From Candidatus Zixiibacteriota bacterium (GTDB taxonomy: Bacteria; Zixibacteria; MSB-5A5; GN15; FEB-12), in the NCBI GenBank assembly GCA_041742355.1, contig JBGSIV010000256.1:1-31154 (forward strand): 31,154 nucleotides of DNA, in the 5' to 3' direction. The first letter of the stretch is position 1, and each line of letters begins with the position of its first letter. A program made the translations under genes and the position numbers. Below, piece after piece: positions 3,998-31,148 of this stretch. The notes beneath the pieces were generated by a model. That model saw only the letters and a list, made by a program, of their open reading frames with translations, had not been told where the DNA came from and did no database searches.

Positions 3998-4015
3998 GAG
4001 GGACGGCAATTGTGG

Positions 4016-4052
4016 GCCGGCGATCCGGTTAGTCCGGGTTGCCGGCTTTTTT
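4016..4052 (+). terminator. Intrinsic terminator after apgM
   Basis: GCCGGCGATCCGG / TTAGT loop / CCGGGTTGCCGGC (13 bp including 2 G-U pairs) followed by TTTTTT. Confidence 0.85.
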
Positions 4053-4066
4053 GTATCAGGAGGGGG

Positions 4067-4170: not shown

Positions 4171-5769
4171 GTGGGTATATTCAAACGCATCTGGCGGGTG
4201 ATTCTGCCGGAAGATGTCAATCTGCGCTGGCGGCGGCTGGAACTGGCCGGCTGGGCTTTTGTCCTGTCGACCGCGTTCTATCCGGAGGTGTGGGGGTTCC
4301 TCGCCTGGTTCGCTCTCGTCCGGCCGATAATGATTCTCACCAGGCTCGACGGCAGAGCGTTGTTCGGAGCAGCCTACTTTTTCGGGTTCTTCTTTAATCT
4401 CTTCACGATCTACTGGGTGGCGCTGGTAACGCCGCCGGGGATGGTCACGGCGGTGGCGATTGTCGGGCTGTACTATGCCATCATGCTGTACATGTTCGCG
4501 AAACTCCACCACTGGAAGCCCTGGGCGGGCTACCTGGCGCTGCCGTTTTTGTGGACTGGGCTGGAGCATTTCCGAACGCTTTCTGAGTTCGCCTTTCCGT
4601 GGTCGGATCTCGCCTATACGCAGGGGTACTACCTGTGGATTCTGCAGATCGTGTCGGTGATCGGCGCACACGGCCTGACCTGGCTCATTGTCGCAGTCAA
4701 TGTGCTGCTGGTACAGGTCTTCCGGAAGCAGCTGACGTACGAGCGGCGCATCGTATCGGGGATGGTGTCGGTGGCGGTGGTTGTGCTGCTGCTCGGATTC
4801 GGATGGATCATCATGCCGAGATATCCGGTGGAGGGGAAGTTCGGGGTGGCACTCCTTCAGGCCTCCGTGCCGCTGGATGTGAAGTGGTCGAAAGAGAGCG
4901 TAGTCGAGAATTTTGAGTTGCACCGCAAGCTGGCTGAGTCGGTGGACACCACGGAGGTCGGGCTCTTTGTCTGGCCGGAAACGGCGGCGCCGTGCTACAT
5001 GACGCACGATCGTAACTGCCAGGAGATGGTGGGGGAGATCGCGGCGGCGACCGGCCGCCCGCACTTTGTCGGGTCGCTGGCGTACGAACTGATCAGGGGG
5101 AAATTCCGGCACTTCAATTCGTCGTTCCACTTCGATTCGTCGGGGCAGCTGCTCTACCGCTACGATAAAGCGAGGCTCGTTCCGTTCTCGGAGCATGTTC
5201 CCTACCAGGATTACCTGCCGTTTCTGGAGAAGCAGTTCCTCCGCAAGTACCTCACGTTCATCGACACGTACGGGGTGCAGTGGTGGTCGGATTTCTATCC
5301 CGGGGACTCCTCGCAGGTGTTTTCGACCGGCGAGGTAATTTACGGCCCGCTCATCTGTTTCGAGGTGGCGTTTCCGGAGTATGTGCGGGAGTTCGTGCTG
5401 AAAGGGGCGCAGTTCCTTGTGGAGATCACCAACGACACCTGGTTTGAGCGGTCGGTCGGGGTGCACATGCACTCGCGGATCTTCGTCACGCGGATGATTG
5501 AGAATCGGTCGTGGGGGGCGCGGTCGGCCAACAGTGGGCTGACATACATCGTGGATGACTATGGACGGATCCGTGAGTCGATCGATTTGTACGCGGTGGC
5601 GGCGGTACAGGGGAAAGTCGGACTTCTGGACAGCTACTCGATATTCACCCGGGTCGGAGATGTGGCCGGCCGGGTGTCGTTATTGCTAACCGGCCTTCTA
5701 CTGGGTATATTCATCGCGGTATGGTTCAAACGAAGAATCTCACGCAGGTTGCAGCGCGCCTCCTCGTAG
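4171..5769 (+). CDS. lnt: Apolipoprotein N-acyltransferase
   Basis: Multi-TM N-terminus, FPWSDLAYTQ, nitrilase triad WPET / YDKARLVPFSE / ICFE, ITNDTWF, SANSG, C-terminal TM. Confidence 0.96.
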   Translation: MGIFKRIWRVILPEDVNLRWRRLELAGWAFVLSTAFYPEVWGFLAWFALVRPIMILTRLDGRALFGAAYFFGFFFNLFTIYWVALVTPPGMVTAVAIVGLYYAIMLYMFAKLHHWKPWAGYLALPFLWTGLEHFRTLSEFAFPWSDLAYTQGYYLWILQIVSVIGAHGLTWLIVAVNVLLVQVFRKQLTYERRIVSGMVSVAVVVLLLGFGWIIMPRYPVEGKFGVALLQASVPLDVKWSKESVVENFELHRKLAESVDTTEVGLFVWPETAAPCYMTHDRNCQEMVGEIAAATGRPHFVGSLAYELIRGKFRHFNSSFHFDSSGQLLYRYDKARLVPFSEHVPYQDYLPFLEKQFLRKYLTFIDTYGVQWWSDFYPGDSSQVFSTGEVIYGPLICFEVAFPEYVREFVLKGAQFLVEITNDTWFERSVGVHMHSRIFVTRMIENRSWGARSANSGLTYIVDDYGRIRESIDLYAVAAVQGKVGLLDSYSIFTRVGDVAGRVSLLLTGLLLGIFIAVWFKRRISRRLQRASS

Positions 5770-7934
5770 CGCTCACGGTCCTACTGCCGATGGCGGCGCA
5801 GGCACAGGTTACCTGGGAGACGCTCACGTCGTTCCGGTCGATCCGCCGGCTGGCGGTAATCGATGACACGCTGTATGCGGCGACCTCGGGCGGTCTGCTC
5901 CGCGTAAGCGAGTTCGTCTCACCCGGCCGGCAGTTCATACATACCGATGGCCTCGGCACGACTGACCTGCGTGATATCGAGGTCGATGCAACCGGCATGG
6001 TCTGGCTGGCCGGATTTGGGCGGCTGGTTCGTTTCGATCCGGTTGATCCTCGGCAGTATCTCTTCCGCGACCGCGACGGCAACCAGCTCTCGCTCTTCTC
6101 TATAGAAAATGACGGCGACTACATCTGGACGGGCACGAGCATCGGGTTGGTGCTTTTTTCCAAGACGGCCGATGGCGGGCAGATTGAGGATAGCTACACG
6201 CGGTTCGGCGGGTTGAATCCGTCACCGACGGTGTTCGATATCGAACTGCGCAACGACACGCTCTGGATTGCAACATCGTCGGGCCTGGCGGTGGCGCCAT
6301 CCGCCGATCCGGTGCTGCTGAAATCGCCGCTGACCTGGCTGACATTCGACGTGGGAGATTACCCGGAGCTGGGGAATGATACGGTGCGGTCGGTGGAGGC
6401 ATACGGGGATGACATTTACGTGGCGACTTCGAAGGGGGCGTTCCGATTTGCCGCGGATCCGGCCGACACGGTGTTTGAACCGGTAGCATTTGCCGCGGGA
6501 CGGGTGGTGACGGATCTCGTGGCGGAAAATGATTCGCTCTTTGTCTACCACTCCGGCGGAATCGGGGTCGTGACGGAGGGGGGTTCGGCGAGCCTTCCAA
6601 CGACAGGGTTACGTCGAGCAGCAGTAACCGGTGTCAGTTGGGCAGGGCGGCGCTGGGTGGCGATGAGCGACAGTGGGCTCTATGCCTGGACGGGTGCGGC
6701 CTACGAGGAGTACCGGTATACCGGTTCGCCCGGGAACGACGTGCGGACAATCGCGTATGGTCCCGATGCAACGCTCACGGCCGGATTCGGCGACAAGGTG
6801 TACGCGCAGTACGATGGCGAACAATGGACGCCTCGAGCATTCAACGCGCGCGACGGGACGATGGATCTGCTGGTCGGACCGGACGGAAATGTCTGGGCGG
6901 CGACCTGGGGAGAAGGGTTGTGGCGTCTGTCGCCGGACACGACGATCAACTACGACGAACAGAATTCGACGCTGACGGGAATTCTGAACGGGCCGCGGTA
7001 TGTCGTGGTGCGCAGTCTTGCGACCGACGGAGTGAACCTGTTCGCGTCCCTGTTCCAGGCGGCCAACGGGGCGACCGCCGGCTGGGTGCCGTTCGCACAG
7101 GCGGGTGATTCAGCGGCGTGGCGGACGCTTGGCGCGACCGACGGCATTACCAACGACCTGATAACCGCGATCGGCTACGGGAAGGGACAACTGACGTTCG
7201 GCACGATGTCGGTCGGAATTTACATGTGCGATCTGGGCAGCGACCCGTACACGGGGACCACCCCCGTGGTTCGTCATTACACCGACGACAACTCGCGGCT
7301 GCTCTCAAATTCGATTCGGGTGATTACGTATGCGCCGAACGGCGAGGCCTGGATCGGCACAAACCTCGGGATCTCGCGCTGGGATTCGGGTATCGAGCGG
7401 CTGGTCGACGTGACGTTGCCGGCGGGCGTGGGGACGGATGTGTCGTCGATCGTGTTCGACCGGCGGGGAAACGCCTGGGTCGGAACGCGGGGCGGCCTGG
7501 TACGGCTGGATGCCACCGGCGGCGAGCCTGAGGTTTATACGACGGCCAACAGCGAGCTGGTTTCGGATGATGTCCGCGACCTCTGGCTCGATCTCGACCA
7601 CGGGCGTGTGTACATCGCGACGGCCGGGGGGATTTCAATCCTTCAGACGCAAATCAGCGTGTTGACCGGGGCGATCAATGAGGTGGTGCCGGTACCGAAT
7701 CCATTCATCATTCGTTCAGACGAGGACCGTCTGACGTTCAACCTGGACCGTCCGGCAACGGTCAGCATATTCTCGGTCGCTGGGGAGTCGGTGGCTGAGT
7801 TTTCCATCAATCGTCCCTGGGATGGTCGCAACGACCGCGGCCAGCCGGTGTCATCCGGAGCGTACATCTACGTCATCACGGACGAAGCCGGGGCGGTTCA
7901 CCAGGGCAAGATTCTTCTTATTCGCAAGCGATGA
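5721..7934 (+). CDS. PorZ-like secreted beta-propeller protein with C-terminal FlgD-Ig/T9SS-type domain
   Basis: Signal peptide (..LLPMAAQA|Q), repeated propeller blades (LWIATSSGL, AWIGTNLGI, AWVGTRGGL, VYIATAGGI, YTTANSELVSDDV) and CTD VPNPF...WDGRNDRGQPVSSGAYIY...GKILLIR. Length and architecture match PorZ. Confidence 0.75.
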   Translation: MVQTKNLTQVAARLLVALTVLLPMAAQAQVTWETLTSFRSIRRLAVIDDTLYAATSGGLLRVSEFVSPGRQFIHTDGLGTTDLRDIEVDATGMVWLAGFGRLVRFDPVDPRQYLFRDRDGNQLSLFSIENDGDYIWTGTSIGLVLFSKTADGGQIEDSYTRFGGLNPSPTVFDIELRNDTLWIATSSGLAVAPSADPVLLKSPLTWLTFDVGDYPELGNDTVRSVEAYGDDIYVATSKGAFRFAADPADTVFEPVAFAAGRVVTDLVAENDSLFVYHSGGIGVVTEGGSASLPTTGLRRAAVTGVSWAGRRWVAMSDSGLYAWTGAAYEEYRYTGSPGNDVRTIAYGPDATLTAGFGDKVYAQYDGEQWTPRAFNARDGTMDLLVGPDGNVWAATWGEGLWRLSPDTTINYDEQNSTLTGILNGPRYVVVRSLATDGVNLFASLFQAANGATAGWVPFAQAGDSAAWRTLGATDGITNDLITAIGYGKGQLTFGTMSVGIYMCDLGSDPYTGTTPVVRHYTDDNSRLLSNSIRVITYAPNGEAWIGTNLGISRWDSGIERLVDVTLPAGVGTDVSSIVFDRRGNAWVGTRGGLVRLDATGGEPEVYTTANSELVSDDVRDLWLDLDHGRVYIATAGGISILQTQISVLTGAINEVVPVPNPFIIRSDEDRLTFNLDRPATVSIFSVAGESVAEFSINRPWDGRNDRGQPVSSGAYIYVITDEAGAVHQGKILLIRKR

Positions 7935-8860
7935 ACACAGTCTGTTATCGTGGGACAGACGTACCGGAAGAGATGGTGCGCGCGCTGGCGGGCCGTTCTT
8001 TTCTCGCATCGGCGTCATTTGCCTCGATCTGGGCCGCACGGGGAGGGAGCCGGGTGGTCTGGGGTCTGGAGGAACAGGGGAGGTTGGTGGCCGCACTTCC
8101 GGGAGTGGAGTTCGGCCGGCGGCCGCTGCGGCGGTTTATGGCGATGCCGAACGGGCTGTACGGGCGGCTCTGTATCGCCGAGGAGTTTCGGCCGGAGCGG
8201 GATCGTATCGCGGCGGCGTTACTGGAGGCAATCTCCGGTGACGAGTACGTGAAGTCGTACGTGTTTGATTTCTTCGGTGAAATCTTACCGGAGGCGGTGC
8301 GGGCGCGGGCAGAGAGCCAGGTCGCGATTCTCGCCGATATTGGCGCACCGGACTGGCGGCCGCCCGACCGCAACCTGCGGCAGGAGATCCGGAAAGCGAC
8401 GCGCGGGGGGCTTTCCGCCCGCCGACTGGACTGGTCGATTGATCGGGATAGCTTTCTGAAACTCGTGCAGAATATTGAAGGGCTTCAAGGAAGGAAGACC
8501 CGGTACTCCGAGGCGTTCTGGGAAGGTCTGGCCTGTGTCGCGCAGGCGGACGACCGGGTGTGCTGGTACATGGCGGAGCACGAAGGCACCCCCGTGGCAA
8601 CGCACATTTACTTTGTCGAAGACGAAATGCTGTTTGCGTGGCAATGGTACTATGATCGCCGGTTCTCGGTGCTCAAAGCCAACCAGTATTTGGTCAACCA
8701 CGCGTGCCTGGAGGCCAAAGCCCGAGGGGTTCAAACGCTCAATCTGGGAGCAACGCCAAAGGGCGCAGAAGGAACGATGTTTTTCAAGCGGCGCTGGGGC
8801 GGGTACCCACGGACGTACACACACCTGGCCCTTCGCCGGGGAATCGGGCGGTGGCTGTGA
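7931..8860 (+). CDS. GNAT-fold FemAB-related / Acetyltransf_6 acyl- or aminoacyl-transferase
   Basis: NLRQEIRKATRGG, ANQYL..HA..EA..RG..TLNLG...GTMFFKRRWGG signatures of FemAB-like GNATs. ATGA overlap with the upstream gene. Confidence 0.75.
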   Translation: MNTVCYRGTDVPEEMVRALAGRSFLASASFASIWAARGGSRVVWGLEEQGRLVAALPGVEFGRRPLRRFMAMPNGLYGRLCIAEEFRPERDRIAAALLEAISGDEYVKSYVFDFFGEILPEAVRARAESQVAILADIGAPDWRPPDRNLRQEIRKATRGGLSARRLDWSIDRDSFLKLVQNIEGLQGRKTRYSEAFWEGLACVAQADDRVCWYMAEHEGTPVATHIYFVEDEMLFAWQWYYDRRFSVLKANQYLVNHACLEAKARGVQTLNLGATPKGAEGTMFFKRRWGGYPRTYTHLALRRGIGRWL

Positions 8861-9930
8861 CGGATTCGCCGCTTCGCATACTGGTGCTGGCCGATGCTCG
8901 GTCGTTCCACACGGAGCGGTTTGTGGCGGAGGTGCGCAATCAGGGTTGCGAAGTAATGGCGGGATCGCTCGAACCGGGGGAAATGGAGTGCCGCCGGTTG
9001 CGTCGGCGGGGTCCGATCAGTTCGATTGCGTATGCACTGGCGCGGCGGGAAGTGGAGGACCTGATCAGATCGTTTCGGCCCGATGTCATCAGTGCGCATT
9101 ACGCGGCCGGGTACGGCTACCTGATGAGCAGGGTGAAGCACGATGGGATCCCGGCGACACTGCATGTGTGGGGATCGGATGTGCTGGTCGTGCCGAAGAA
9201 GTCGTGGCTGCACAGGCGCAAGGTGGTGGCAGGACTGAGTGCGGCCGATCACATCTTTGCCGATTCGCAGTATCTGGCCGACGCGGTGCGGTCGCTGGTT
9301 CCAACAGAAGCGCTGAGCGTGTCTCCATGGGGGATCGAGCGGCGGCACCTCTTCCTGCACAAGCGCGACTATGCGCCGCGGCGGCCGCTCGCAGTGATCG
9401 TGCCGCGTCTGCACGAACCGATCTACGACAATCTCTTCATAGTTGAAGCGCTGCAGGAAGAGATCCGGGCCGAGCGGATTCGGATCACGTTTCCCGCTTT
9501 TGGATCGAAATTCCGCGACTTTCGGGCGAGAGCGGATGCACTGACCGGCGGGCGTGTGCGGTACTACGAGAAATTGCCCCGACCGGAGTTCCTCACGTTT
9601 ATGGCGACGCACGATGTCTACCTCTCGGCGGCGCAGTCGGATTCCTCGCCGGTAACCCTGATCGAGGCGATGGCGCTCGGGTTGATTCCGGTCGCGGCAG
9701 ACATACCCGGGGTGCGGGAGTGGCTGACGCCGGAGAGCGGGTTGGCCTATCGACCGAAGGACGCTGTCGGGCTCCGGGCGGTCGTGCACAGGCTGACGGA
9801 TTCTGACGAGCCATATGAGGGGATGCGGCGGGCCAACCTCGGGCGGGTGGAAGCGCTGGCGGTGTTCGAAGATAATGTTGCTTCGCAACTGGCGGTTATG
9901 CGTACGTTACACCAGAGGGTCGCCCGATGA
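8857..9930 (+). CDS. Glycosyltransferase family 4 (GT-B)
   Basis: Start re-called at GTG 8857 (GTGA overlap; MTDSPLRILVLAD). FRPDVISAHY, HVWGSDV, SDSSPVTLIEAMALGLIPVAADIPG. Confidence 0.88.
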   Translation: MTDSPLRILVLADARSFHTERFVAEVRNQGCEVMAGSLEPGEMECRRLRRRGPISSIAYALARREVEDLIRSFRPDVISAHYAAGYGYLMSRVKHDGIPATLHVWGSDVLVVPKKSWLHRRKVVAGLSAADHIFADSQYLADAVRSLVPTEALSVSPWGIERRHLFLHKRDYAPRRPLAVIVPRLHEPIYDNLFIVEALQEEIRAERIRITFPAFGSKFRDFRARADALTGGRVRYYEKLPRPEFLTFMATHDVYLSAAQSDSSPVTLIEAMALGLIPVAADIPGVREWLTPESGLAYRPKDAVGLRAVVHRLTDSDEPYEGMRRANLGRVEALAVFEDNVASQLAVMRTLHQRVAR

Positions 9931-11180
9931 AGAGAGTACTGCTGGTTTGCTACTATTTCCCGCCACTGGGCGGAGCGGGTGTAACGCGTCCGCTGGCGTT
10001 ATTTCGCCACTTGCCGGAGTTCGGCTACGAGTGCCACGTGCTCACCGTTAAGCCGGTGGCCTACCGATCATTTGAGCCGGATCTGTTGGAGGGATTGCCG
10101 GTTGACCGTATCTACCGCTCCGGATCATCCGATCCCCAGCGGTTGATGTACCTGCTCGGGGTTCGCCTGGTGAAGGATCGGACAATCAGGGGGACACGGA
10201 CGATTTCCGATCGGTACTTCCCCGATCCGAAGATCGGCTGGGTACGTCGGGCAGTAGCCCTGGGGCGCACGCTTCTATCGAATCGGGATTACGATGCGAT
10301 TATTTCGACCTCGCCGCCGATTTCGGCGCACCTCGCGGCGCGCAAACTCAGCCGGGAGTTCGGGCGGCCGTGGATTGCGGACTTCCGTGACTTCTGGGGG
10401 ATTCAGCCGCCGGAACGGGTGTTCGCGGACCATCCCTCGCGGCTGCGACGGGCGCGCAAGCTCCTCGAAGCGATCCAGGCCGAAGCGACCGACCTCACTG
10501 CAGTCAATCCGACGATCGGAGGGTATGTCGGCGCCCCCCACGTCGTATACAACTGCTATGATGATATTCTGGCGCAAGGGTGGCGGATTCCGACGGACTC
10601 CCGTTTCATTATTGGCGTGCTCGGGGCGATCAACGACACGACGCCCATTGCTCCGCTTCTGCGAGTGCTGGATCAGCTTCGACGGGAGCGGCCGGATCTC
10701 TTCGCCCGGATAATGGTGCGGCAGGTCGGGGAGGCGGATCCCGCGTGGTTGAACGAGCAGCTCGAATCGTACCGCCTGCACGATCGGTTCGAGTTGTACG
10801 GGTGGCAATCGCGGCGGGAGACGGTGAATCTGCTTTCGGAAACATCGCTCATGTACCTCGGAGTCGGATCGGAGCATGACCGGGGGTTGTCGACCGGACG
10901 GGTCTACACGATGTTGTCGTCGGGCCGCCCGGTGCTCGCGTACGCGCCGCCGGATTCCGAGCTGCGGCGCCTGATCGAGTCGACGGGAGGCGGATTCACG
11001 TTCTACGAACCGGTGCTCGATCCGGCGGTCGCACATCTGGCCGGGCTGGTGGAGGCGCACGGCCGCGGTCAGGCGGCGGTGATGCCGCGCCCGGCGTACG
11101 CCGAACCCTACGGTTCGCGGAAGATGGCCGAGCAGTTCGCGGCTATTCTCGGCCGCTACGCCGCACCGGCGTACCGGTAG
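9927..11180 (+). CDS. Glycosyltransferase family 4 (YYFPP..GG / WIADFRD subtype)
   Basis: MKRVLLVCYYFPPLGGAG, PDPKIGW, DAIISTSPP, PWIADFRD, SGRPVLA. ATGA overlap with the upstream gene. Confidence 0.85.
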   Translation: MKRVLLVCYYFPPLGGAGVTRPLALFRHLPEFGYECHVLTVKPVAYRSFEPDLLEGLPVDRIYRSGSSDPQRLMYLLGVRLVKDRTIRGTRTISDRYFPDPKIGWVRRAVALGRTLLSNRDYDAIISTSPPISAHLAARKLSREFGRPWIADFRDFWGIQPPERVFADHPSRLRRARKLLEAIQAEATDLTAVNPTIGGYVGAPHVVYNCYDDILAQGWRIPTDSRFIIGVLGAINDTTPIAPLLRVLDQLRRERPDLFARIMVRQVGEADPAWLNEQLESYRLHDRFELYGWQSRRETVNLLSETSLMYLGVGSEHDRGLSTGRVYTMLSSGRPVLAYAPPDSELRRLIESTGGGFTFYEPVLDPAVAHLAGLVEAHGRGQAAVMPRPAYAEPYGSRKMAEQFAAILGRYAAPAYR

Positions 11181-11185
11181 TCGGG

Positions 11186-13471
11186 CTAGTGCAGGAGGAC
11201 CATCTTGCGCGTCTCCACGAAATCCTCACTGGACATTCGGTACAGGTAGACCCCGGAAGCGGCCGCAGTGCCGTGATTGCTGCGGCTGTCCCAGGTAACG
11301 ATGTGGCTGCCGGCGGAGAAGATTCGATCAGCCAGCGTGCGCACCTGCCGACCGGCGATGTCATAGATCTCGATGACGACGCGGGCCCGGCGCGGCAGGT
11401 CAAAGGTGATAGCTGTGGAGGGGTTGAACGGGTTGGGGAAATTCTGATTGAGCGTGAACCGGGAGGGGAGCGTGCCGTCATCCGGGTCATCGGTGTCGGT
11501 CGCGAGGCTGGGTGTGTAGGTAGTGCGCCCGATGTTGTGGCCGGTGGTGGCGGCGGCAATAGTATAGGTGCGGCCGAAGGAGAAGTCGTAGCGGAGGGGT
11601 GCACGGCCGGTGTTGTCGGTTACGGCAGCGGCGACGCGGCCGGAGTCGGTGGAAACGATGACGGTGCAGTTGGAGATGAATCCACGGCTGTCGCGGATGA
11701 CGGCGACCGGGTGTTCGGGCGTCAGGTCTATCGATATCAACATGCTGTCCGGGATGCCGGTATAGATGCGAAGGCTGGGGTCGCCATAGAAGTTCTGGCC
11801 GTAGGCGAGATCCTTGTAGTACGGGAACGCCAGTTTGGAGCGGGCCATGGCATGGGCCGCCGGGCGATCGGGGTGGGCGAAGAGGGTATCGAAGAAGGCG
11901 CGCTGCAGGTAGTGGCTCATGCCGACCCAGCCCCAGCGAGAGTAGGCGACAAAGGCCACCGCGCCGGAGTGCGGCTGGGCCAGGGCAGAGGCGACGAGAT
12001 TCGGGTTGGTGTAGACAAACGGCGGGGCGTCCTGATCGAAGCCGCCGTTGTCGCAGGCGAGGGAGTAGTACAGGCCAACACGGTCGTTCGGCGCAAGCGA
12101 GTCGAGCGGGGCATTGGTGCCGGTCGGGGGTTCGGTAATGATGTATGACTTGGGCCACTCGTTGTAGGCGGCGGTGCGCACGCCAAAAGCGTCGGGGCGG
12201 CCGTGGGCAAGAATGTTGACGATCCCGTAGCCCTCCGAGAGCATCCCGATCATGTCGGCCGCGCTGCCGTTGGTGGGAGCGGGGTTGTCCCCCGAGGGGG
12301 CTTCGACGCCGTTTATGGTGTCGAGTTCGAAGGTGGGAGGGTAGGCGCCGGCGATGAGCGCGTGCTGGCCGCCGCGATAGTCGCGCATTTCATCGGAGCA
12401 GAAAAAGAACGCACGGTTGAGGTAGGCGCGATCGATGCCTTCGAGCGTTTCGTAGGCGATGAGCTTCTCGGTATAGGCGGACAACTGAGCGGCGGTGTGG
12501 AACGGGAGACGGCCGACCAGTAGTTCAGGAACCCAGTCGGCGCGGTCGGTGTATGGCTCGCCCCAGACGCCGTCATTGTCGACATCCCAGTCGCCCGTCA
12601 GGTCGGCGAAGTAGAGGTCACATAACTGCAGGTCATGCAGGTCGGGTTGGGTGGTGGCGGTGGCGGCGTAGGCGTAGCGGATGGGCAGTACGGTTTCGTC
12701 GCCGACCAGGAGAACATACTGCCCGCCATCGCCGTGGAAGCCCGTGAGATACTCGCGCAGCCGCTCGGCGTCGTCCCGGCCCGAATGGGCGGCGAGTATC
12801 GAAGCGATATCGACTACCGCGGCGGTGATTCCGATCGAGGTCTTGTACGCGGCGAGGCGCTGGGCTTCGGCGGCGAGGGCAGCGCTGGTGATGATGACGT
12901 AGTCCGGTGCGGCATCCGCACTCAGGCAGCGGGCTGGAAGCCGGTCGTTCCCAAGGTCGACGGCCGAGGGCGGCAGCAAGTCGCTTCCGGCCAGCGGTGA
13001 GTCGCCACGGTTGAGAGTCACGGTTTCGTGGAAGCGGAGTATCCCGGTGGAGTCGGTCGTGACCGGGAAGAGGATTATTCGGGCGTAGCGGCCACCCGGC
13101 GTTTCGATCAAGTCGATGGAGATGGGGGTGCGGCCGGGGAGGGCGTCGCGAAGCGGCGCCGCCGGCAGAGCGTGTTTGGGATCGAGCGCGGTCGGTTGAT
13201 CGTTGATAATGTCGGTCTCTAATTTGACCAGAGCCACACTCGGGGCGAGGTCGAACCGAATGGCCGACGGATCTTCCTCGGCGGACAGGGGGACATACGT
13301 CAGCAGGACCGGCAGGGAGAGACGGGCGGAGATGGCCGTTTCGCCGCACCCATCAAGACGCACAGAGTAGACGCCGTTCTCATTCGCTACCCGGGGTATA
13401 CCGAATCGGACGGTTGCCGCATCGGATCGGGTACACAGCACAGCCAGGACAATCAGGATCAGCCGGTTCAT
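11186..13471 (-). CDS. Gingipain-family (C25) cysteine peptidase with propeptide, Ig-like domain and FlgD-Ig/T9SS CTD
   Basis: Signal peptide, DYVIIT, YVLLVGD, CDLYFADLTGDWD, VGRLP, catalytic His in ILAHG and Cys in SLACDNG, NFYGDPSL, CTD LNQNFPNPFNPST...WD...SGVYLYRM...KMVLL. SD GGGAG. Confidence 0.9.
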   Translation of the reverse strand: MNRLILIVLAVLCTRSDAATVRFGIPRVANENGVYSVRLDGCGETAISARLSLPVLLTYVPLSAEEDPSAIRFDLAPSVALVKLETDIINDQPTALDPKHALPAAPLRDALPGRTPISIDLIETPGGRYARIILFPVTTDSTGILRFHETVTLNRGDSPLAGSDLLPPSAVDLGNDRLPARCLSADAAPDYVIITSAALAAEAQRLAAYKTSIGITAAVVDIASILAAHSGRDDAERLREYLTGFHGDGGQYVLLVGDETVLPIRYAYAATATTQPDLHDLQLCDLYFADLTGDWDVDNDGVWGEPYTDRADWVPELLVGRLPFHTAAQLSAYTEKLIAYETLEGIDRAYLNRAFFFCSDEMRDYRGGQHALIAGAYPPTFELDTINGVEAPSGDNPAPTNGSAADMIGMLSEGYGIVNILAHGRPDAFGVRTAAYNEWPKSYIITEPPTGTNAPLDSLAPNDRVGLYYSLACDNGGFDQDAPPFVYTNPNLVASALAQPHSGAVAFVAYSRWGWVGMSHYLQRAFFDTLFAHPDRPAAHAMARSKLAFPYYKDLAYGQNFYGDPSLRIYTGIPDSMLISIDLTPEHPVAVIRDSRGFISNCTVIVSTDSGRVAAAVTDNTGRAPLRYDFSFGRTYTIAAATTGHNIGRTTYTPSLATDTDDPDDGTLPSRFTLNQNFPNPFNPSTAITFDLPRRARVVIEIYDIAGRQVRTLADRIFSAGSHIVTWDSRSNHGTAAASGVYLYRMSSEDFVETRKMVLLH

Positions 13472-30716: not shown

Positions 30717-31148
30717 ATGCGCACAGTGATCGGGCTGCTCGGATTGTCGTTGCTGATGTGGATGGCGACGACAGGCTGCGAGGATGATCCGCCGGACGAA
30801 CTGCTTTCGGTGACGGTGGTCGATCGGATACTGGCGGCGGGAGCCTATCGGACCTGCTGGGATCAACTGGACAACAACGGGGATCCGGTTCCGGCAAGGG
30901 GCTACTCGGTCTGGGTGGAATCGGGCAACGGCTGGGACACGTCGATGCTCTTCCATATCTACTCGGAGGCGGTACACGTCCCGTCGCCCGGCTGCGACAG
31001 CGTCAATGTCAAGAAGGGCGTACCCGAGCACTATGGGGCAAGGTTGAACGACTCGGTCTTCGCGCCGGGGGATTCGATCATGATCGACTTTGACGTCCCA
31101 ACAGAGGATTCGATCACCGTACGCATCCACGAATTGGGGCCCATTTAG
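30717..31148 (+). CDS. Lipoprotein with an FlgD-Ig/T9SS-CTD-like domain, apparently circularly permuted
   Basis: Strong SD, signal peptide with lipobox TTG|C21, DRILAAGAY...WDQLDNNGDPVP...Y motif and C-terminal IDFDVP...ITVRIHELG. Confidence 0.75.
   Translation: MRTVIGLLGLSLLMWMATTGCEDDPPDELLSVTVVDRILAAGAYRTCWDQLDNNGDPVPARGYSVWVESGNGWDTSMLFHIYSEAVHVPSPGCDSVNVKKGVPEHYGARLNDSVFAPGDSIMIDFDVPTEDSITVRIHELGPI

Follow-up and report, generated by a model that had tools for sequence, protein, structure and literature searches.

Does a locus in which the gene for PorZ, a type IX secretion system (T9SS) component, is chained to a predicted aminoacyl transferase and two glycosyltransferases make the glycan to which secreted proteins are then attached? 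This question is raised by a stretch of 31,154 nucleotides, here called the window, from Candidatus Zixiibacteriota bacterium (contig JBGSIV010000256.1, or C256, of a 4.37-Mb genome, G000, that is 93.8% complete). In Porphyromonas gingivalis, the acceptor lipopolysaccharide (LPS) is bound by PorZ, which also binds PorU, and is joined to cargo by PorU (PMC8545088). In the same organism VimE removes an acetyl group from a Wbp sugar, to which VimA adds serine, and VimF likely transfers the product (PMC7468200, PMC13086638); the substrate of VimA is described as a deacetylated diamino-uronic sugar that receives serine or glycine (PMC7468200). The linking sugar of T9SS cargo has been described in three oral species, and further routes are probable (PMC11969387). 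No publication linking Zixibacteria with type IX secretion, or describing this locus, was found in a search whose coverage largely excluded subscription journals. By sequence and structure comparison we identify PorZ, an intact PorU, SprA, PorV-family proteins, open reading frames (ORFs) with the C-terminal sorting domain (CTD), lipid A synthesis, and the linkage of porZ to the transferase genes. From these data we suggest, with a probability just under 0.6, that the locus serves to make an aminoacyl-glycan acceptor and to present it to PorU. An initial annotation of this DNA had proposed such a co-location of acceptor synthesis and presentation; its PorZ, its VimF-type glycosyltransferase and its synteny stood, and its use of the neighboring C25 peptidase as a sortase and its VimA orthology did not.

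The propeller protein encoded at 5721-7934 is PorZ by sequence and structure comparison. Its top NCBIfam model is T9SS_PorZ (NF052228), at 130 bits under a cut-off of 260. That cut-off is passed in only 2 of the 101 phylum genomes surveyed (41 for some families, and for GldL and GldN four, namely the window's genome and three single-contig genomes), which implies that the model under-scores the zixibacterial clade; a PorZ match occurs in 100 of the 101. A profile built from 21 PorZ-type proteins of Bacteroidota retrieves the window gene with an expect value (E) of 1e-100 and the runner-up gene with 5e-19. Porphyromonas gulae PorZ as a lone query likewise ranks the window gene first, and this gene and Bacteroidota PorZ are reciprocal best hits. 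For the AlphaFold model (pLDDT 89.8), the best Foldseek match is PorZ (PDB 5M11) with a TM score of 0.69, as compared to 0.33-0.35 for sensor propellers. VIA-align superposes the model on 5M11 with Z 29.9 and a root-mean-square deviation (rmsd) of 5.7 over 671 residues, and on the sensor 3V9F with Z 30.6, which ties with 5M11, but with an rmsd of 19.2 over 546 residues. A two-component sensor was considered, as hybrid sensors lead sequence searches of solved structures through many short repeat matches. It was rejected because the match to 5M11 is one stretch (profile positions 167-721), its fold fit is better and the hit is reciprocal. The PorZ-like propeller of the initial annotation is thus PorZ.

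The genome encodes further components of a T9SS. PorU, on contig C126 (1303 amino acids, 643 bits), lies beside a PorV-family gene, and its His and Cys align with those of 6ZA2; each of the 101 phylum genomes has one PorU match over cut-off. SprA and the lipid A synthesis gene lpxC are both present in the window's genome and in 41 of 41 genomes across the phylum. Eight PorV-family matches exceed the cut-off, 70 ORFs end in a CTD, with type A CTD proteins numerous, and three genes belong to the O-antigen ligase/polymerase family. The genome therefore contains the sprA, porV, porU and wbp-like genes named in the initial annotation as ones to look for. The porKLMN genes, named there as well, were not found in profile searches for GldK, GldL, GldM and GldN. 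GldM gave no match in 101 genomes, and GldM, GldN and GldL each gave none in the set of four, with P. gulae positive in every search; GldK, searched without a positive control, gave none over cut-off in 41 genomes and five weak partial matches. These motor and ring profiles were built on Bacteroidota proteins and may miss very divergent homologues. A GldK match in the window's genome was discarded, as it covers the C-terminal part of the model only and scores higher for another family. Around porU itself (G000:C126:605-10587, L112), the order is porU, a PorV-family gene of 924 amino acids with a long insertion that divides its match, and an M6-like CTD protein.

What distinguishes the zixibacterial porZ is its neighborhood. 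We compared 63 porZ-centered loci, which comprise the best matches plus a few chosen for a nearby VimE-like match or for family coverage, so that they are neither a random sample nor, being kin, independent. The lnt gene lies upstream of porZ in all 56 scorable loci, and a GNAT-family gene directly follows porZ in 57 of 60 (58 with L072, left out by the distance rule). The window's order of GNAT, GT4a and GT4b behind porZ recurs in 46 of 59 loci. In another 9 of the 59, the same slot is taken by a GNAT of the VimA clade with a VimE-like gene, which bears out the expectation of vim-type parts at porZ, and one locus (L105) has a different glycosyltransferase where GT4a stands. The gene order is conserved above chance and recurs across the phylum, as had been proposed. 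The slot between GT4b and the C25 peptidase varies. Many relatives carry a GT2 gene there (e.g. L041:9628-10503), which the window locus lacks and of which a homologue lies on contig C121; two carry an asparagine-synthase-like gene of the WbpS amidotransferase family (L044:3357-5174, L046:13965-15809), likewise not in the window locus; and in the distant relatives L094, L096, L099, L101 and L108 membrane GT-C (PMT_2) genes are inserted.

The glycosyltransferases were compared with VimF using the P. gulae recA-vimA-vimE-vimF locus (L076), in which VimE was named by NF053580 (691 bits), vimF through its match to a primer motif from the literature, and vimA from where it lies. In hhalign, GT4b and VimF align over their full length (probability 99.6, E 2e-23, 386 columns). 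The GT4b profile finds vimF as its sole match in P. gulae (5e-21), and P. gulae VimF as a query finds GT4b as its sole, weak match in the window's genome (E 0.009), making the two reciprocal best hits. The resemblance to VimF that the initial annotation had noted thus holds, down to the start of P. gulae VimF, MKRVLIFAD. GT4a was tried as VimF and rejected (hhalign probability 4.5). Zixiibacteriota supply most of the named close homologues of GT4b and also the atlas clusters closest to the GNAT.

The GNAT and P. gulae VimA both match PF13480, as well as TIGR03019 below its cut-off, and hhalign aligns the GNAT with VimA at probabilities of 96.4 and, for the VimA family, 98.1. Against the PDB, its profile best matches FemX-type lipid II transferases and also matches aminoacyl-tRNA-dependent synthases. 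Such matches, and the position of the locus between lnt and the dcw cell-wall cluster 0.4 kb past the C25 gene, would suit a GNAT whose substrates are peptidoglycan precursors or lipoproteins, in the way that FemX uses lipid II, with the glycosyltransferases serving a separate glycan. We consider this highly improbable, since the FemX matches are weak (E 4e-8 to 6e-5) and glycosyltransferases are chained to the GNAT in every case, as is, in nine relatives, a VimE-type carbohydrate deacetylase. In a 55-sequence tree, with four GNATs from the window's genome as its only outgroup, the nine GNATs upstream of VimE-like genes group with VimA (98/94); a topology test does not reject a tree that unites every porZ-linked GNAT in one clade (p-AU 0.126). 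The genome has a second protein-sorting system on contig C66 (L113:4239-9554), where an exosortase and an EpsI gene adjoin two other FemAB-like GNATs.

The C25 peptidase at the end of the locus was described in the initial annotation as a sortase-like partner with an intact His/Cys dyad and its own CTD. The dyad and the CTD are confirmed. PF01364 matches the 761-residue protein at 169 bits, a FlgD_ig CTD follows, and all 26 aligned homologues keep both H423 and C473, the latter lining up with the Cys in the FDVAC motif of RgpB. We take H423 to be the catalytic His from its invariant HG motif and by analogy with gingipains. The sortase role is not borne out. The enzyme scores 90.7 bits on the PorU model NF033707 (cut-off 420), and its fold is gingipain-like (Z 39.1, rmsd 3.1 over 391 residues for RgpB; Z 36.8 for Kgp; Z 17.3, rmsd 12.9 for PorU), and with the true PorU on C126 its identity as PorU was ruled out. 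The enzyme might still belong to the machinery as a second, short sortase or as a maturation protease working with PorZ, the possibility nearest to the initial annotation. It is present in 87 of 101 genomes as a single match in 86 of these, is no more than 12 kb away from porZ in 76 of the 86 genomes where both could be placed, and keeps its dyad in all aligned homologues. We nevertheless regard this as very unlikely, because the fold is that of RgpB and Kgp, every genome has a true PorU, the gene lies on the opposite strand, its CTD is preceded by a cargo-like acidic linker, and 14 of 101 genomes gave no match to it; near-complete genomes are among these 14, as are one of the same genus in 7 contigs and one in a single contig. 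By a measure chosen post hoc, the acidic linker ahead of the CTD occurs in 26 of 62 CTD ORFs, 24 of 26 C25s and 0 of 34 PorZs, with a background of 11%. PorZ is reported to keep its CTD (PMC11285876), and presence of the linker in cargo and C25 but not in PorZ fits a division into cleaved and retained CTDs (PMC11285876). The window C25 is predicted to be a conserved gingipain-like T9SS cargo. Three further C25-family genes, apart from PorU and this enzyme, lie on contigs C50, C20 and C54.

The two kinds of porZ locus differ in their relation to the vim genes. The VimE-like genes of relatives align with VimE (probability 97.1) and score 57 bits on NF053580 (cut-off 440), and such matches occur in 26 of 101 genomes, none above the cut-off. 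In a 34-sequence tree, the GT4 that follows them falls outside the VimF subfamily, which means that neither type of locus copies the vim operon whole. Sequence comparison thus indicates that the phylum has two mosaics behind porZ, both of which carry some of the vim set. In the window's genome, a WbpB-like gene is clearly assigned (E 2e-110 to 3O9Z), and WbpA-, WbpD- and WbpE-like genes are assigned by family only; the Wbp genes lie on separate contigs. A cluster on G000:C107 (L111:8634-17022) encodes polysaccharide export and chain-length proteins, a hexapeptide acetyltransferase, two DegT aminotransferases and a MurJ-like flippase; it also holds the closest paralogue of GT4a (E 4e-42) and is a candidate source of amino sugar.

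These components suggest the following route. The GNAT would place an amino acid, probably from aminoacyl-tRNA, onto a free amino sugar, whose amine may come straight from a DegT/WbpE-type aminotransferase, given that no VimE is found here. GT4a and GT4b would assemble a short terminal unit, with the aminoacyl sugar added by GT4b, and this unit would be carried on LPS. PorZ would then bind the glycan, and the PorU of C126 would take its alpha-amine as acceptor, exchanging the CTD of the cargo for the glycan.

Several observations weigh against this route, and many of them fit an ordinary envelope glycan locus, in which the GNAT and GT4s make or decorate an LPS or capsule unit that has no part in anchoring and simply sits in a stable neighborhood between purM/lnt and dcw. 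With regard to gene order, the flanking purM and mraZ are conserved as well, and since these are housekeeping genes, gene order by itself carries limited weight. In 21 Bacteroidota porZ loci, no lnt, GNAT, GT4a, GT4b or Vim match lies within 1.5 kb. Two loci break the pattern: behind porZ, L045 (G024:C43) keeps no more of the block, which is broken or moved there, than a fragment of GT4b among unrelated genes, and L091 is a porZ locus without the GNAT. With regard to the glycosyltransferase, two Neolewinella genes match the GT4b profile better (E about 1e-50) than VimF does; they lie in what we take, from their genes, to be capsule or exopolysaccharide (EPS) clusters. These comparator genomes came from a genome scan for vimF, in which four of five matches were short chance frames and only that of P. 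gulae was vimF. In the 34-sequence tree, GT4b, a long-branched VimF and four capsule/EPS-type genes form one group (86/95) whose internal branching the tree leaves open. The VimF subfamily is therefore not specific to the Vim pathway and takes in capsule-locus enzymes. The initial annotation had held that its proposal would fall if the GNAT and glycosyltransferases grouped with ordinary O-antigen or EPS enzymes, and for GT4b some of the relatives are indeed of that kind.

The GNAT and the sugar genes add to these difficulties. That the GNAT is VimA-like is upheld for its FemAB-like fold and not for orthology. A VimA-family profile of 120 sequences does not retrieve it at E<=1, P. gulae VimA as a query does not retrieve it from its genome, the GNAT profile run on three named genomes gives no match, and in the 55-sequence tree the 25 window-type GNATs form a separate group (87/97) outside the VimA clade. 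On this comparison it is a distant VimA relative with a FemX fold, not a VimA orthologue. No vimE was found in the window's 93.8% complete genome. The WbpB query has matches in 64 of 101 genomes, and in one of nine within the four VimE-type families. At L130 (G033:C98), a VimA-family gene (E 6e-91), an 856-amino-acid VimE-containing gene and a WbpB-like gene lie together in an O-antigen-type cluster apart from porZ. A stricter cleavage-motif test does not discriminate cargo, being positive in 7 of 64 CTD ORFs and 7 of 34 PorZs against a background of 5.6%. In addition, VimA relatives are described as widespread alongside EPS and Wbp clusters (PMC7468200).

Three observations speak against the envelope glycan locus, which we judge unlikely, if the most serious of the alternatives. 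The block is kept in one place phylum-wide, whereas O-antigen loci are usually variable. Where the enzymes are replaced, the replacement set is again a FemX-fold GNAT with a glycosyltransferase, and it bears VimE-like and VimA-clade genes. Finally, the genes of the block overlap porZ directly. An aminoacyl-glycan acceptor for PorU remains the reading that we prefer. A wider generalization is more tentative and falls short of even odds, namely that Zixibacteria run a stripped T9SS (SprA, PorV, PorU and PorZ, with no PorK, PorL, PorM or PorN) whose acceptor-glycan genes stay in a chain with porZ, with two or more chemistries that can replace each other, one VimE-dependent and one VimE-free.

If this generalization is true, the locus would be a gene list for a new protein-to-LPS linker, and SprA export and sortase anchoring would be workable without the known motor. 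With PorU present in all 101 genomes and SprA in all 41 searched for it, but GldM matched in none of 101, the question arises how the SprA translocon is driven without a motor. What is new here is the commoner, VimE-free locus, the removal of the C25 peptidase from the sortase role, and the phylum-wide occurrence of SprA, PorU and PorZ without a detectable motor. As candidate linker enzymes stand beside porZ across a whole uncultured phylum, the chemistry is open to an in vitro test with three soluble proteins.

The features of the locus are collected in Table 1. Its six ORFs have the coordinates first assigned to them, and the junctions were read directly: lnt and porZ overlap by 49 nt, the next three genes are joined at ATGA (7931), GTGA (8857) and ATGA (9927), and the stop codons of the convergent GT4b and C25 genes are 5 nt apart. 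A transcription unit likely starts anew at lnt, after the hairpin that separates it from the upstream apgM. Promoter-like sites are not enriched (4, as compared to 3.3 in shuffled sequence). Downstream lies the mraZ-ftsZ (dcw) cluster, in which mraZ is named by Pfam and the other genes are putative. At 30717-31148 (-), an ORF of 143 amino acids starts like a lipoprotein and matches nothing in Pfam or NCBIfam.

Table 1. Features of the porZ locus in the window, with the basis of each assignment.
Feature	Coordinates	Strand	Basis
Terminator-like hairpin and T-run, 3' of apgM	4014..4058	+	15 pairs, 10 G-C; consensus match only
lnt, apolipoprotein N-acyltransferase	4171..5769	+	TIGR00546, 252 bits (cut-off 133)
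PorZ, with signal peptide, two beta-propellers and, at the C-terminus, a T9SS CTD	5721..7934	+	NF052228, fold model, reciprocal best hit
FemX/FemAB-fold GNAT, predicted aminoacyl transferase	7931..8860	+	PF13480 over cut-off, FemX profile matches
GT4a, GT4 glycosyltransferase, not VimF-like	8857..9930	+	PF13477 over cut-off
GT4b, GT4 glycosyltransferase of VimF subfamily	9927..11180	+	hhalign to VimF; Pfam matches only weak
C25 cysteine peptidase, gingipain-like, carrying its own CTD; predicted to be T9SS cargo rather than PorU	11186..13471	-	PF01364, FlgD_ig CTD, fold

Four known systems can be set beside the locus. It resembles the T9SS attachment complex of P. gingivalis (PorU, PorV, PorQ and PorZ) in the fold and domain order of PorZ, in a PorU that bears the His/Cys dyad and is encoded beside a PorV-family gene, in SprA, and in many type A CTD proteins. 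It differs in that the zixibacterial porZ is chained to lnt and glycan enzymes, unlike the Bacteroidota porZ loci, that PorK, PorL, PorM and PorN were not found by the profile searches, and that the PorV beside porU is 924 residues long and split. The second comparison is with the gingipains RgpB and Kgp of family C25 (1CVR, 4IEF, 4RBM), with which the window C25 shares an N-terminal pro-region, a His/Cys catalytic domain, an Ig-like domain and a CTD. It is 16-18% identical to them and, in contrast, is a mostly single-copy, conserved gene of an environmental phylum.

The third comparison is with the Wbp/Vim pathway and the vimA-vimE-vimF operon of P. gingivalis and Tannerella forsythia. Here too a FemX-fold GNAT lies upstream of a VimF-subfamily GT4, WbpA/B/D/E-like genes lie elsewhere in the genome, and nine relatives have a VimE-like gene in the same slot. 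The window differs in its extra GT4 in the place of VimE, in the lack of a VimE match in its genome and in a GNAT outside the VimA clade. The fourth is Prevotella intermedia, for which PMC11969387 describes cargo anchored through an N-alanyl-deoxyhexose without VimA or VimE; the locus would be alike in using an aminoacyl sugar for anchoring by PorU without these two enzymes.

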